Counted from the stretch's first letter, positions 50,120-55,979 are shown. The stretch is 64,000 bases of DNA from an uncultured delta proteobacterium (GCA_963755715.1 CAVWLW010000034.1:32001-96000); one strand, 5' to 3'. The notes: a model not told the origin generated them from the sequence alone. Program-made: numbers and translations.

Positions 50120-50446
50120 TTACTGCAATGCCTTCTCGATGGCGCTTACCAATTTCGCTTTCGGCACCGCGCCGACGATTTGTTCCTTCACGGCGCCGCC
50201 TTTGAGAATGATTAAATTCGGAATTCCCCGAATGCCGTAGCGCGAGGCGGTGGCGGGGTGTTCATCGACATTGAGCTTGGTCACTTTGAGTTTGCCTTCA
50301 TATTCGCCGGCGATTTCTTCGACGATCGGCGCGATGGATTTACACGGGCCGCACCAGGGCGCCCAAAAATCGACTAGCACCGGTACCGTTGACTTTAAAA
50401 CTTCAGCTTCGAAATTGTTGTCGCCTACCTCGGTGATTTTTCCCAT
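50120..50446 (-). CDS. trxA: Thioredoxin
   Basis: WAPWCGPCK; AGGAGG SD before ATG 50446. Confidence 0.96.
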   Translation of the reverse strand: MGKITEVGDNNFEAEVLKSTVPVLVDFWAPWCGPCKSIAPIVEEIAGEYEGKLKVTKLNVDEHPATASRYGIRGIPNLIILKGGAVKEQIVGAVPKAKLVSAIEKALQ

Positions 50447-50459
50447 AACCAGGACCTCC

Positions 50460-51938
50460 TTATAATGCAGAGAGAAATTTAAGCAGAGTACGCACGCCGA
50501 ATCCAGTGCCGCCCTTGGGGCAAAGCGCGTTGTCGTTTTCGGCGAACGCCGGCCCGGCGATATCCAGATGCGCCCACGGCACGTCGCCGACAAATTCTTG
50601 CAGGATCAATGCGGCTGTGATCGCCCCGCCGTGAGATCCGCCGATGTTTTTCATGTCGGCGACGCTGCTTTTGATCATTTCTTTGTACTCTTTGACCAGC
50701 GGCAGTTGCCAAAGCTTTTCGCCGGCTTCCCCGGCGCAACGCAGCAGCGTGTCCGCGAGCGGCTGGTGGTTGCTGAAAAGGCCACCGACTTGGGTGCCCA
50801 AAGCGACCATGCAAGCGCCGGTTAAAGTCGCCAGATTGATCATGTAATCGGGATTCTGTTCGCCGCCGAGCGCGAGCGCATCGGCGAGGATCAGCCGCCC
50901 TTCGGCGTCGGTGTTGAGCACTTCGATAGTCTTGCCGTTCCTGTAGCGAATCACGTCGCCCGGTTTCTGCGCATTGTCCCCGGGTAAATTATCGGTTGTA
51001 GGCACGTAACCCGTGACGTCGATATCGAATCCAAGCTTGGGCAAGCAACTCATCGCGGCGATTACGGCGGCGCCGCCAGCCATGTCGAGTTTCATGGTTT
51101 CCATCGACTTCGATGGCTTGAGCGATAAACCGCCCGAATCGAAAGTTATGCCTTTGCCGATCAACACGACTTTCTTTTTCGGCTTGCCCGCAGGCTTGTA
51201 ATGAATTTTTATAAAGCGCGGTTCTTCATAGCTGCCGCGGTTCACCGCCAAGAGTCCGGCCAATTTCATCGACTCGATCTTTCGCTTGTCCCAAACTTCC
51301 GCAGACAATCCCCGGCCACGGCAATATTTTTTTGCCTGTTCGCCGAGGAAACGCGCGGTGGTGACCGACGGCGGTTCATTGACCAGATCGCGCGCCAGAG
51401 AGACTCCGGTGACGACGATCTGCGCGATTTCGATCGAGCGCATCAATGCCGCGGTCGGCCGCAAGCCTGAGTTAAACAGCGTGAAGGACTTGAGCTCGGC
51501 CGGCGGCTTGGAGCTCGAGCGATATTTATTAAATTGGTAGGCGGCCAATAGCGCGCCTTCGACCAGCGCGCCGCCTGCTATTGCCGAATCTTTATCGGGC
51601 GAAAAGAAAAATGCGATGTCTTCGGCGCCGAGCGCTGCGGCTTCCCTGCGCGCTCGCGCGCCGATCTTGCGCCAAGTGTCGCCGGTGATTTCCGCTCCGC
51701 CGCCGAGGCCGATCAACAGCAATTGGGCGGCCGGCAAAAGTCCGGCCGTTTGATAGATCAACGTGCCGCCTTCGGCGCCGGTGAATTTACTTTTTTGCAT
51801 GCGCGCGCGCAGATTACCCCGAAGACGGCGGTCCAGGGCTCGGATTAGCGCATCGTCGAGTTTCTTTTCGCGCACCGGGATGACGAGCAGATCGGTTTTG
51901 ATCCGTTCGGCGTTGCTGTCACGTACCTTGATTTCCAT
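50460..51938 (-). CDS. pepA: Leucyl aminopeptidase (M17)
   Basis: GKGITFDSGG, MKLDMAG, NTDAEGRL, ATLTGA, HLDIAG. Confidence 0.95.
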   Translation of the reverse strand: MEIKVRDSNAERIKTDLLVIPVREKKLDDALIRALDRRLRGNLRARMQKSKFTGAEGGTLIYQTAGLLPAAQLLLIGLGGGAEITGDTWRKIGARARREAAALGAEDIAFFFSPDKDSAIAGGALVEGALLAAYQFNKYRSSSKPPAELKSFTLFNSGLRPTAALMRSIEIAQIVVTGVSLARDLVNEPPSVTTARFLGEQAKKYCRGRGLSAEVWDKRKIESMKLAGLLAVNRGSYEEPRFIKIHYKPAGKPKKKVVLIGKGITFDSGGLSLKPSKSMETMKLDMAGGAAVIAAMSCLPKLGFDIDVTGYVPTTDNLPGDNAQKPGDVIRYRNGKTIEVLNTDAEGRLILADALALGGEQNPDYMINLATLTGACMVALGTQVGGLFSNHQPLADTLLRCAGEAGEKLWQLPLVKEYKEMIKSSVADMKNIGGSHGGAITAALILQEFVGDVPWAHLDIAGPAFAENDNALCPKGGTGFGVRTLLKFLSAL

Positions 51939-52622: not shown

Positions 52623-53360
52623 TTACAGTCGTTGCAACAACCAGTTGGGCGTGAAGCGCAGCACGTAGGCATTGAGCAGCGTCATGTAGTCGGCAATTAA
52701 AAGAATGCCGACGATGATCAAGAGAACGCCTCCGACCACATGGATGGTTTGAATATAATGACGCAGCCGTTGTGAAAACTGAAAGAAAGAATCGATCGCC
52801 AGCGCGCTCAAAAAAAACGGCAGAGCCAGGCCAGCCGCATAGCTTGTCAGTAACAGCGTGCCGCGGCCCACTTCACCGGCGGTGCTTGCCAGAGCCAGCG
52901 TGGCTCCCAGGATCGGTCCTACGCAAGGTGTCCAAGCCACGGCAAAAGTGATGCCGACAAGAATAGAACCGAGATAGCCCGCCGGTTTGTCCTTGAGATT
53001 GAACTGTAAGTATCGATCGAGCACAGCGATCTTGAATAGGCCGACGAGATAGAGCCCAACCAGCAGGATAAACACGCCGCCGAGTATGCGAATCGCGTTG
53101 CGATAATCCAGGAAGAGACCGCCGAGAAAACTCGCGGAAGCGCCGAGCGAGATAAAGACTAACGAAAAGCCGATAATAAATGCTGCCGAGTTCAAAATCA
53201 CGCGCCAGCGAACCCGCGCGCGCGCTTCTTCGCTGCGCATTTCATCGAGAGAAACACCCGACACAAACGAAAGATAAGATGGAATCAGGGGCAGGACACA
53301 GGGCGAGAGGAACGAGAAAACTCCGGCCGCGAAAGCAACGAAAATGTTGACGTCGGTCAT
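52623..53360 (-). CDS. ccdA: Cytochrome c biogenesis protein CcdA
   Basis: SFLSPCVLPLIP and WTPCVGPILG. Confidence 0.92.
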   Translation of the reverse strand: MTDVNIFVAFAAGVFSFLSPCVLPLIPSYLSFVSGVSLDEMRSEEARARVRWRVILNSAAFIIGFSLVFISLGASASFLGGLFLDYRNAIRILGGVFILLVGLYLVGLFKIAVLDRYLQFNLKDKPAGYLGSILVGITFAVAWTPCVGPILGATLALASTAGEVGRGTLLLTSYAAGLALPFFLSALAIDSFFQFSQRLRHYIQTIHVVGGVLLIIVGILLIADYMTLLNAYVLRFTPNWLLQRL

Positions 53361-53923
53361 CTCTTGCCGTCAGTAAGATCTTTAATGAGCTTGCGCGCGC
53401 CATTGCCGTACCATTCTGCCGGCCCCCAACCGCGCGCCAATCCTTCGCCGTTCGGACCGATGAGATAAGTCGCCGGCAACCCCCAAGCGCCGTAGAGGCT
53501 GCCCACTTGGGCTTCGGGGTCGAGGGCGATCGGATAGGTTATTTTAAGCTCCTTGACGAAGTCGACCGCGTCTTGTTTACGGTCTTTCACCGCCACGGCT
53601 AAGACGACAAAGTTTTTTTGCTTGTACTCCTGGTACAACTTTTCCATGGCCGGCATCTCTTCCCGGCACGGCACGCACCAACTCGCCCAGAAATTTAACA
53701 GCACGACTTTGCCGCGGAAGTCCTTTAAAGAGATCTTTTTGCCGTCGGGCGTGGTTAGATTGAACTCTGGGGTCGGCGCGGTGTCCTTCATCGGCTGAAG
53801 AATCGGCACCGCTTTTTTGTAGTCGACTTTCGTTTGGCTCCATGCCGGAGCAAAACTTAGAACGATTGAGCTTCCAAAAAAGACAAATACGCGCAGGAAA
53901 TCGCCGGTGATTTGCGTTTTCAT
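53357..53923 (-). CDS. TlpA/ResA family thiol-disulfide reductase
   Basis: Signal peptide, [24 protein letters not shown]; overlaps ccdA start. Confidence 0.9.
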
Positions 53924-54084
53924 ACAGGGTTTAACTCTAACCAACAGGCCGAGCCGACGCAATACTCGTCCCGACGCCGAATTCAGGCGCCCGGCAAAGA
54001 GAAGCTAGGAAAAAAATCGTGCTGCTGTTTACATGCGGGATGGATTTAATTTCGTGTCGAACGAATTTGAATCTAACGACGGCC

Positions 54085-54126
54085 AAAAACACAAGGCCCT
54101 CCAAGTTGTCACTGGAGGGCTCTGTG
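54085..54126 (-). terminator. Intrinsic terminator of the poly-Lys sORF transcript
   Basis: Minus strand: CACAGAGCCCTCCA-GTGACAACT-TGGAGGGCCTTGTG-TTTTT. Confidence 0.7.
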
Positions 54127-54207
54127 TATTAGGCAACCAGAACGGTTACCTTGTTGCCTGAGAGTCAGGAGGGTTTAAATCACCACCACAACCCCACAAC
54201 TCCGTAT

Positions 54208-54258
54208 TTACTTCTTTTTCTTTTTGGCTTTCTTCTTGGCTTTCTTTTTAGCAGCCAT
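54208..54258 (-). CDS. 16-aa poly-lysine small protein MAAKKKAKKKAKKKKK
   Basis: ATG GCT GCT AAA AAG AAA GCC AAG AAG AAA GCC AAA AAG AAA AAG AAG TAA, preceded by SD AAAAGGAGGT-GCTT; promoter upstream and terminator downstream. Confidence 0.75.
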   Translation of the reverse strand: MAAKKKAKKKAKKKKK

Positions 54259-54371
54259 AAGCACCTCCTTTTAGGATTCCACGGGCGGGCTTTTCGATTG
54301 ACAGGCGTTGAAAATTGACTCAGGCAAGAGAAACGAAACTAAAAACCCTCCCATATTTTGTAGGTGATCCA

Positions 54372-54401
54372 ATTATTAGGACACAACAGATTGTATGTCA
54401 A
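54372..54401 (-). promoter_or_regulatory. sigma70-type promoter for the poly-Lys sORF
   Basis: TTGACA (54401-54396), 17-18 nt spacer, TAATAAT; AT-rich UP-like tract upstream. Confidence 0.6.
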
Positions 54402-54965
54402 GAAAAAAATATCATTTTACAAAATATTTTGACGCGTGCGCTGAAACTTTGCCGACGAGCAATTCAAACTGTGATCAAGCAATGACGGCGAACTAAGAGA
54501 TAGCGATTAACAGCAGAGCGTTTTATTGCGACGTTTGATGTCAAGGATCAAAAAAGCATGTTGAGGAAAATTTTTGGGCGTCTAAGCGAGGGGCGATCAG
54601 AATCGCAGCTGCACAGTCAAAGCACAGTGGCGCGGAGATTACCGCGCGAACGCTCCGACTTCACTCAATCCGTAGCGCCTTGATCATTTTGGGGCAAGTG
54701 GGGGATGCAGGCGGCGAGCTTTTGCCGCAATAGGCGCTTGCGGGCGCGCTCCGATGGCGCGGATAAACCCATCGCGGAGTAAATGCGCGGCGGCGGCACA
54801 GATAGGCGGCGCTGATGACCACGAAGGCAGGTGATCTATCGGAAGGAGATTTAGGGCTTTGCCAAGAACTGTGCGCTCGACCATACCGCAAGTGGTAATG
54901 ATACGAGCGGCTTGTCGTCAAGATCTGGGGAGCAGGGTTTGTCAGGAAAACATTCTGCGTGGGTG

Positions 54966-55979
54966 CTATCGCGAGGCCGTGGCACGTGCCAATTCTTCAT
55001 CGATGATCCGCGCGAAAGCTTCGAGGGGTTGAGCTCCCGTCAAGGGCCGTCCGTTGATGAAAAACGCCGGCGTGCCAGTGACTCCAAGACGCGTACCCTC
55101 GTCAATATCTTTTTGTAATGCGGTTTTGTGCACGCCGCCTGAGAGGCAGTCGTCAAACTTTTTGACATCGATCCCGGCTTGCGCGGCATAGCGCTTCAAA
55201 TCATCGGGAGCCAATTTAGGCGACTCGGTAAAGAGCGTGTCGTAATATTCCCAAAACTTTCCCTGATCGTTCGCGCAACGCGCCGCCTCGGCGGCCCGCC
55301 GCGCCTGGGGATGGATACTTTCAAGCGGAAAGTCGCGATACACGAGTTTGACTTTGCCTGCATATTTCTCAAGTAATTGCATTAAGGTCGGGTGTGCTCG
55401 CTTGCAGAACGGGCATTCAAAGTCAGAAAATTCGACTATTGTAACTGGAGAGTTCGCCGGTCCTCTAAAAGGTGCTCCGTCCACCGATACTTCGACCCGC
55501 GCCGCCGCCGGCGGCTTTAAGTTGTCTACTATCTTGGCTTGTGAGCGGAGAGATGTGAGAAATTCTTCGCGCTTAGCCGCCAACTTTTGGTTTTGTAAGA
55601 AAGCTCTGATCTGCTCCCGAACCTGAGCCTGCTCTCCTTTGATCTGCGCTTTCTTTTCCTGATAGAATTTTTCGATCTCCTGTTCCGTGACCAGGCCGAC
55701 TTTCGAGGTGATCTCAGCATCCAGTAAAGCCGGCACCGTGAGCTTGCGTTTGGCTGCTTCCTTTTCCAAAAGCTTCTCATTGATCAGCGCGTCGAGTTTC
55801 TGGCGTTTTAGATTGTAAATCTGCTCTTCGAGCTTGCTTAGCTGGCCCGCGAGACTTTTTTCGACTTCTTCCGAAGTGATCGCGGCCCCGTCCACCTCAG
55901 CCAGCGCATCGCCCGCCCCGTGAGCGTTTGTTGGAAAGCTGGATCCCAGCAAGAAAAGTAAAATCCAAAAAATCATCAT
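54966..55979 (-). CDS. DsbA-family oxidoreductase with SurA-like N-terminal domain
   Basis: Signal peptide, EFSDFECPFC, YRDFPL, GVTGTPAFFING. Confidence 0.9.
   Translation of the reverse strand: MMIFWILLFLLGSSFPTNAHGAGDALAEVDGAAITSEEVEKSLAGQLSKLEEQIYNLKRQKLDALINEKLLEKEAAKRKLTVPALLDAEITSKVGLVTEQEIEKFYQEKKAQIKGEQAQVREQIRAFLQNQKLAAKREEFLTSLRSQAKIVDNLKPPAAARVEVSVDGAPFRGPANSPVTIVEFSDFECPFCKRAHPTLMQLLEKYAGKVKLVYRDFPLESIHPQARRAAEAARCANDQGKFWEYYDTLFTESPKLAPDDLKRYAAQAGIDVKKFDDCLSGGVHKTALQKDIDEGTRLGVTGTPAFFINGRPLTGAQPLEAFARIIDEELARATASR

Follow-up and report, generated by a model that had tools for sequence, protein, structure and literature searches.

A conserved transcription unit with a poly-lysine micro-ORF, very probably translated, ahead of thiol-redox genes in soil Binatia

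Conservation and coding character of the unit

Here we describe a small transcription unit on the minus strand of a 64,000-nucleotide (nt) stretch of DNA from an uncultured delta proteobacterium (GCA_963755715.1 CAVWLW010000034.1:32001-96000; hereafter the window), whose source lineage is the uncultured soil Binatia. The unit occupies positions 54085-54410 and comprises a promoter, a leader of about 107 nt (counted from the predicted transcript start), a Shine-Dalgarno (SD) sequence, a very short open reading frame (micro-ORF) for a lysine-rich peptide of 16 amino acids (aa), a trailer of 87 nt and an intrinsic terminator, giving a predicted RNA of about 280 nt. The original prediction had named promoter, leader, SD, an ORF with 11 Lys among 16 residues, trailer and terminator, all of which are present on that strand. 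The predicted peptide is built from Met, Ala and Lys only, with a (KKKA)-type periodicity. Gene callers and protein databases are blind to ORFs this small, and a gene kept through the whole history of its order has therefore stayed invisible.

Taken alone, neither the promoter scan (1 found against 1.4 expected) nor the terminator scan (2 found against 2.3 expected) is significant. The unit nevertheless stands beyond chance because its SD+ORF pattern has a single match in its own 7.4-Mb genome of 56% G+C (control matches, 0), because, of the 32 micro-ORFs in that genome that follow an SD and reach 50% or more Lys+Arg, its own ranks top and is the only Lys-rich one, and because relatives conserve the unit as a whole. 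In a DNA search, the entire stretch from promoter to terminator (~335 nt) was matched in 27 of 41 relatives, the own genome counted, at 67-96% identity. The claim that it forms a discrete promoter-to-terminator unit is supported. With the own genome left out, the same search recovered it in 21 of 24 genomes of the window's genus (75-96% identity), in 5 of 5 genomes of a second family (67-70% identity) and in 0 of 11 genomes of a third.

Pattern searches extended this picture to the whole order. A strict SD+ORF pattern matched 50 of 123 genomes, while its reversed control matched 0 in every genome; by family, and without the window's genome, the matches fell in 44 of 89 genomes of the window's own family, 5 of 5 of the second and 0 of 28 of the third. 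A trailer motif (CTCAGGC-N8-14-GTTYTGG), which is a noisy detector that matches controls too and was used only for choosing loci to read, led to 20 loci in further genera, all 20 of them carrying an SD and a K-rich ORF; 11 of these belong to genomes missed by the strict pattern, which brings the confirmed total to 61 of 123 genomes of the order. The original prediction had staked itself on a conserved SD-ORF with synonymous variation in relatives, and it is in these 61 genomes that such an ORF is present. In the third family, a KKKAKKK-coding string was absent from 5 of 5 near-complete genomes searched, and no K-rich micro-ORF lay within 1.5 kb of the single hydrolase homologue found. In a sample drawn evenly across the phylum, a less stringent pattern matched 2 of 401 genomes, both from the window's own family and one of them the window's own, and no SD+ORF was found in the other 399. 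The tallies include genomes flagged as unpublished (G005, G076, G079 and G093), of which G005 supplies one alignment row, and no statement depends on them alone. The unit is vertically inherited and, among the genomes searched, restricted to one Binatia order; the DNA runs that contain the stretch are soil and rhizosphere metagenomes.

The unit is single-copy in its own genome. One relative carries two copies (G003:C25:188369-188705 and G003:C26:27874-28210; loci L023 and L022), which score equally in BLAST against the unit of the window (75% identity over query 1-336) and do not differ in the nucleotides of the ORF. As each is located close to the end of a contig, they may represent an assembly duplicate instead of a true second copy.

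The coding analysis drew on 48 ORF copies from 47 genomes, comprising 37 distinct nucleotide versions and 17 distinct peptides. The ATG is kept in all 48 copies, the SD core AAGGAGGT is invariant (46 of 46 sequences), and a stop codon directly follows the last Lys or Arg in every case (TAA in 37, TAG in 11). The peptides are 12, 13, 15, 16, 17 or 19 aa long, with length differences that are always whole codons and indels that are in frame, and every copy holds 9-13 Lys codons within its 12-19 codons. Across copies the Lys codons alternate between AAA and AAG; the second residue is always Ala, encoded by GCA (29), GCT (17) or GCC (2), and internal Ala codons vary among GCC, GCA, GCG and GCT. 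In the 17 distinct peptides, Lys is replaced only by Ala, Thr, Arg and, in one case each, Val and Pro, and acidic, amide and large hydrophobic residues do not occur at all. Because the AAA/AAG and GCN changes are synonymous, the indels exclusively in frame and acidic residues absent, the micro-ORF is very probably translated. The pattern of substitution, as far as alignment can tell, argues for selection at the level of amino acids, probably with net charge as its target. A further suggestion, that AAA and AAG codons are mixed so as to hold A-runs to five or fewer, applies to the window's own ORF (longest run 5) and does not describe a conserved design, the longest run per copy being 5 in 20, 6 in 18, 8 in 9 and 10 in 1, that is, 6-10 in 28 of 48 copies.

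RNA structure, expression and genomic context

Two features of the unit go beyond what had been noticed in the original prediction, namely the conserved structure of its leader and trailer and the position of its terminator immediately ahead of a co-directional operon. Leader and trailer are conserved to the same degree as the ORF and contain several invariant boxes: ACAAAAU.UGGGAGGG, GCCUGAG, ACCCUCC, CUCAGGC and a GUUCU loop. In an alignment of 46 sequences, pairing in the proposed structure amounts to 93.7%, compared with 89.7% in shuffles, and 0 of 500 shuffles attain the observed value; it also lies clearly above slid controls. Three helices have covariation support. The terminator shows compensatory changes at 12 of 15 pairs; its core stem is a G+C-rich 9 bp, followed by a T-run. 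A trailer hairpin, H2, shows such changes at 5 of 8 pairs (e.g. GC 23, AU 20, GU 3), with the loop bases G, T, T, G and G invariant. The third helix, P1, is long-range, pairing the leader box GCCUGAG with the trailer box CUCAGGC and thereby enclosing both SD and ORF; seven of its pairs never change, and the eighth covaries (CG 37, UG 4, UA 3, other 2; n=46). An all-against-all covariation scan found no covarying helix besides these three.

In addition, the RNA contains a set of G-rich boxes (an SD-like box near the 5' end, termed Y; the SD; the G/U tract after the stop codon; and the 3' arm of the terminator) and a set of C-rich boxes (the leader box GCCCRCCC; an anti-SD-like trailer box, termed Y'; and the 5' arm of the terminator). 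Y is complementary to Y' over 9 bp, a candidate pseudoknot (94.9% paired, no double changes), the SD to Y' over 7 invariant bp, and Y' to the 3' arm of the terminator over 6 invariant bp. The C-rich leader box has alternative pairings with the SD, with Y or with the G tract after the stop, the changes being one-sided save for one compensatory case. These candidate pairings are mutually exclusive and, judged from complementarity, would open or close the SD. A single-sequence fold (minimum free energy -86.8 kcal/mol, z -2.5) departs from the consensus fold and was left out of consideration.

Promoter and RNA data are consistent with expression of the unit. The -35 region is identical in 47 of 47 full-length loci aligned, the T-tract and TTGACA being invariant. 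In the window it stands 18 nt from the -10 hexamer, and the transcript start predicted from spacing is at about 54365. The joined T-tract and TTGACA string occurs only 1-3 times per genome, always with one occurrence at the unit; elsewhere it stands ahead of a CspA-family gene, a gene for an OmpA-like lipoprotein and a single membrane-protein gene. A type this rare that is shared with Csp and OmpA-like genes fits a strong promoter. A specific cold-shock link was rejected, since one copy precedes the Csp gene but another the OmpA-like gene. The CspA-family gene (G000:C74:51050; locus L149, ~551-942) has the same ATTTTTTTCTTGACA promoter string, a CCTAAT -10 region and a 5' untranslated region (UTR) of ~150-190 nt.

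Six RNA libraries contain 13-20% of the sampled words from a 1501-nt stretch around the unit, and in 4 of 4 soil and rhizosphere libraries examined, from four studies, RNA contigs of 219-310 nt lie on the unit, within 54022-54353 (Table 1). Contigs and promoter type lend support, though supportive weight only, to the transcript that had been predicted. The interval 54369-54900 is without a contig in the four runs, which was not used as evidence of transcript ends, and word depth in library X15 is 52 for the unit contig versus 2-3 for contigs of the neighbouring gene, which was not used as evidence of level. Further contigs from X15 and X17 agree with the window solely over the Lys/Ala codons at 54209-54246 and then run into unlike, seemingly Lys/Ala-rich sequence; these presumably represent basic proteins of other organisms.

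Table 1. Positions in the window of the parts of the unit, of neighbouring genes and of RNA contigs lying on the unit
Feature	Position	Strand	Basis or remark
A/T tract ATTTTTTTC and -35 TTGACA	54396-54410 (TTGACA 54396-54401)	-	promoter scan, 11/12 consensus match
-10 AATAAT/TAATAAT	54372-54378	-	promoter scan; TATAAT, TATACT or TAATGT in relatives
5' box ACAAAATATGGGAGGG with SD-like G-box Y (54346-54352)	54346-54361	-	nearly invariant, 46 sequences; role inferred
P1 helix, 5' strand UGCCUGAG	54319-54326	-	partner 54155-54162
C-rich leader box GCCC(G/A)CCC, candidate anti-SD or Y partner	54283-54290	-	alternative pairings
Shine-Dalgarno AAGGAGGTG	54262-54270	-	3 nt ahead of ATG
Micro-ORF, ATG 54258 to TAA 54208, product MAAKKKAKKKAKKKKK	54208-54258	-	11 Lys in 16 residues
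G/U-rich tract after stop	54181-54203	-	composition conserved; predicted partner C-rich leader box or Y'; no covariation
Y' box AAACCCUCCU, anti-SD-like	54167-54176	-	CCCTC invariant or almost so
P1 helix, 3' strand CUCAGGCA	54155-54162	-	pairs with leader strand
Trailer hairpin H2, conserved loop (C)GUUCU(G)	54131-54152	-	compensatory changes
Intrinsic terminator, extended stem and U-run	54085-54126	-	terminator scan; compensatory changes
TlpA/ResA-like redoxin, probable ATG 53923	53360-53962	-	Pfam AhpC-TSA/Redoxin; NCBIfam ResA/TlpA matches below cut-off
CcdA, after redoxin	52626-53360	-	Pfam DsbD_TM
SurA_N+DsbA-like protein	54969-55979	-	upstream neighbour
Thioredoxin-like ORF	~50120-50593	-	named from WCGPC motif only
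Contig X15, 219 nt	54121-54337
Contig X16, 310 nt	54022-54314		passes the terminator by ~60 nt
Contig X17, 259 nt	54095-54353		0 differences
Contig X20, 219 nt	54128-54346		0 differences

The gene that follows the unit is co-directional with it in 19 of 19 loci inspected. In 13 of these the next ORF is ~270-284 aa long; scans of two such ORFs identified Abhydrolase_6 alpha/beta hydrolases, the other 11 being assigned on length and N-terminal likeness. In other genera this hydrolase gene sits between the terminator and, usually, genes for a TlpA/ResA-like redoxin and CcdA, whereas in the window's genus there is no hydrolase gene and redoxin and CcdA come directly next, the redoxin ATG lying ~160 nt past the terminator. 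The start codon of the hydrolase gene lies 12-41 nt past the T-run of the terminator in 9 of 12 loci measured, and 107-113 nt past it in the remaining 3. A gap of 12-41 nt leaves no room for a separate promoter, so that these hydrolase genes must be reached by terminator read-through or from a promoter inside the unit, and it is on this ground that we regard the unit as an operon leader too. Among proteins of solved structure, those closest to the hydrolase are monoacylglycerol lipases (E ~2e-11), and the NCBIfam matches of the hydrolase all lie far below cut-offs. A macrolide-type '+x+' arrest leader ahead of an esterase was considered and kept as no more than a distant prospect, as nothing points to a macrolide esterase.

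Genes of thiol-redox type surround the unit on the minus strand between 50120 and 55979, with FolE and a leucyl aminopeptidase-like ORF lying between CcdA and the thioredoxin-like ORF. The ~550 nt from the promoter of the unit to the upstream DsbA-like gene (54411-54965) hold no convincing ORF and contain another minus-strand TTGACA near 54543. Upstream of the unit, other genera carry instead a same-strand response regulator of the sigma-54-dependent NtrC type.

Peptide, lysine-codon sensor or RNA

We tentatively favour, with a confidence that falls slightly short of even, a reading in which a polycationic peptide is the selected product of the unit, occlusion of the SD its means of control and the role of operon leader a by-function. 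A strong sigma-70-type promoter would produce a structured RNA ending mostly at the intrinsic terminator. Inside the domain closed by P1, a perfect SD would drive translation of the 12-19-codon ORF, the product of which, after probable removal of Met, would be an Ala/Lys polycation with 9-13 positive charges. Such a peptide may serve as a small nucleic-acid-binding counter-ion, the likeliest targets being the ribosome and its rRNA or the nucleoid. The G-rich and C-rich boxes would set how open the SD is, possibly through feedback by the RNA-binding peptide, and read-through of the terminator would also feed the downstream hydrolase-TlpA-CcdA genes. Translation in vivo, the importance of the peptide over the act of translating it, its targets and the feedback on the SD are all steps that we infer. 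The most specific form of this proposal, in which the Ala/Lys peptide is a functional, minimal eL41/bL37-like polycation binding ribosome or rRNA, or else a nucleoid or RNA counter-ion, and is feedback-controlled by its own structured mRNA, itself the leader of the thiol-redox operon, we consider distinctly doubtful.

The original prediction had likewise proposed a polycation, with a polyamine substitute among its possible roles. Selection on the peptide itself is plausible, given Ala positions that change synonymously and Lys positions replaced only by Ala, Thr, Val, Pro or Arg. The polyamine version found no support, because 41 of 41 relatives have genes with a Spermine_synth domain, irrespective of the ORF and with the ORF-less family included. 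Complementarity to polyamine synthesis was accordingly rejected as support, in a test that is coarse in that it relies on Spermine_synth (PF01564) matches to proteins that are mostly long and atypical. These matches lie in open frames of ~500-1200 aa, which suggests fused or membrane-bound proteins resembling spermidine synthase.

Several observations weigh against a peptide as the selected product. We found no precedent in the literature for a functional poly-Lys peptide of 12-19 aa in bacteria, nor any description of a bacterial poly-lysine micro-ORF or of a Binatia small RNA, a provisional result from a search whose scope lay outside subscription journals. Variable length and variable Ala positions fit a need for many Lys codons equally well as a need for many charges. 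The distance of 12-41 nt from terminator to start codon in most hydrolase loci matches the anatomy of a leader or attenuator rather than that of a gene standing by itself. The G-box/C-box pairings on which SD occlusion would depend have no compensatory support in the alignment apart from one case in the pairing of Y with the leader C-box (A-U in L122). Finally, the RNA contigs do not reveal the strand, the ends or the level of a transcript, and DNA may be present in RNA libraries, so that the contigs are supportive and not proof.

Since its terminator stands directly upstream of a conserved co-directional operon, the unit has a serious rival explanation as the leader peptide of a transcription attenuator, although on the whole we think this somewhat unlikely. 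The ORF would then sense charged Lys-tRNA, or the speed of elongation on Lys runs, and the position of the ribosome would select between the terminator and an alternative fold that permits read-through into hydrolase, TlpA and CcdA, the peptide itself being functionless. A strong promoter followed by a short ORF rich in Lys codons and then by an intrinsic terminator is the classical architecture of such a device, and to this may be added the co-directional next gene, the short gap that leaves no space for a promoter, and the X16 contig that continues beyond the terminator. Peptide length and spacer positions drift while richness in Lys codons is constant, and the mutually exclusive box pairings include arms of the terminator. 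However, the downstream genes (Abhydrolase_6, AhpC-TSA/Redoxin, DsbD_TM) have no recognisable link to lysine, and the operon is therefore not the cognate one of a lysine sensor. No antiterminator helix has covariation support, and the arms of the terminator vary (CCCUCC, CCCUUC, CCCCCC) without matching changes in Y, the SD or Y'.

Several lines of evidence lead us to prefer the peptide over the attenuator. First, the spacer residues are constrained as amino acids, with Ala maintained through synonymous codons and never replaced by an acidic residue, and this constraint is accompanied by a perfect SD and a strong promoter. Second, a structured 5' UTR of 105 nt, the ORF-enclosing helix P1 and the covarying hairpin H2 with its invariant loop would be superfluous to an attenuator. 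Third, the window's genus has lost the adjacent hydrolase gene and yet keeps the unit nearly unchanged, at 160 nt from the next ATG.

A small RNA with dual function, or one acting mainly as RNA, in which invariant boxes act in trans and the ORF is secondary, appears improbable. The anti-SD-like ACCCUCC, for example, would pair with the ribosome-binding sites of target mRNAs, in the manner of Gram-positive small RNAs whose C-rich seeds pair with SD sequences, or the RNA would titrate a protein. Conservation of leader and trailer on a par with the ORF, invariant boxes outside it, a covariation-supported structure, a discrete size with its own terminator and contigs on the unit in all four libraries are each in keeping with such an RNA. 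Against it stand the perfect SD and the ATG, both invariant, together with indels that keep the frame and a synonymous pattern of change, from which it follows that translation itself is selected; furthermore, a covariance-model scan of 53300-55100 on both strands gave no family match in Rfam release 15 at E-values up to 10, and the own genome, 93.6% complete, yielded no Hfq gene. For the latter reason, binding of Hfq to the (ARN)n-like ORF was also discarded as a candidate. Nothing was found that requires a trans-acting role of the RNA.

An untranslated, purine-rich A-tract element of RNA or DNA that merely resembles an ORF would account for its low complexity and for A/G transitions as the commonest change, which a purine-tract constraint would tolerate too, but is very improbable given that the A/G changes in Lys codons fall at third positions and the rare first- and second-position changes lead to Thr, Ala or Arg, that ATG, SD and immediate stop are kept in 48 of 48 copies, and that the six length classes all differ by multiples of three.

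These readings differ in what they would mean. If the peptide acts, it would lower the size limit for a conserved bacterial protein and provide a natural, genetically encoded oligo-lysine; a functional product would be, of all conserved proteins known in bacteria, the shortest and the most basic, with a bearing on charge neutralisation of RNA and DNA, on tiny ribosome-associated proteins and on the behaviour of ribosomes on Lys- or A-rich runs. If the unit is instead a Lys-codon attenuator ahead of a thiol-redox operon, leader-peptide attenuation would be extended to an unexpected amino acid and set of genes. Either way, the unit offers a probably abundant and easily recognised RNA marker of the soil Binatia, of which no member has been cultured. 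The unit is also amenable to study by synthesis and heterologous expression.

Likeness to known systems

Parts of the unit recall systems of quite different kinds. STAB-SD of Bacillus cryIIIA is an SD-like stabiliser at the 5' end of its mRNA, and the unit likewise has, as a candidate stabiliser, an invariant SD-like GGGAGGG that lies about 15 nt from its predicted 5' end and a long way ahead of the true start codon; as a difference, the GGGAGGG box has conserved complements in its own RNA. Lys/Ala-rich nucleoid proteins of the histone H1 type, such as Hc1 of Chlamydia, AlgP of Pseudomonas and the C-terminal tail of mycobacterial HupB, bind nucleic acids by charge and share with the peptide an (A/K)-repeat composition, a resemblance of composition and not of homology, and they differ in extending over tens to hundreds of residues against 12-19 aa. 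Dual-function small RNAs that encode a small protein, among them SgrS/SgrT, RNAIII/delta-haemolysin and SR1/SR1P, are ~200-500 nt long and resemble the unit in having their own promoter and terminator, a conserved structure and a micro-ORF, the translation of which we deduce here from substitutions. The unit differs from them in that its product would be a homopolymer-like polycation instead of a folded or membrane peptide, and in that no Hfq was found.

The tiny basic ribosomal proteins offer a parallel for the peptide; eL41/mS38 are relatives of such proteins, and bTHX is another of them. In Actinobacteria, bL37 has 24 aa and a pI of 12.0 and bS22 has 33 aa and a pI of 12.75, according to PMC10081302. 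The micro-gene shares with bL37 and bS22 an extreme content of Lys and Arg, restriction to one lineage, an expectation of high expression and a history of being unannotated or found late, whereas its peptide is smaller and less complex in sequence. The peptide belongs to neither the bS22/COX24_C nor the bTHX family, since in six-frame searches of the own genome at E-values up to 0.1 neither the profile PF08213 (Corynebacterium control positive) nor TIGR04560 (Thermus control positive) gave a match. Furthermore, a length that varies between 12 and 19 aa argues against a fixed binding pocket.

In anatomy, the closest counterpart appears to be the classical leader peptide, as known from the his, phe, thr and trp attenuators and from the Lys-containing leader of the Thermus lysine cluster. 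Leader ORFs of this class span ~14-30 codons, among them runs for the sensed amino acid, and like such leaders the unit sets a strong promoter ahead of a tiny ORF made up mostly of codons for one amino acid, with a terminator upstream of a co-directional operon. Unlike them, it precedes an operon that is not a lysine pathway, has a long structured 5' UTR, places its ORF within a long-range helix and was found to have no covariation-supported antiterminator. The mechanism would lie between a polycationic product and a sensor of Lys codons, with a product that is new in kind and parts that are known.

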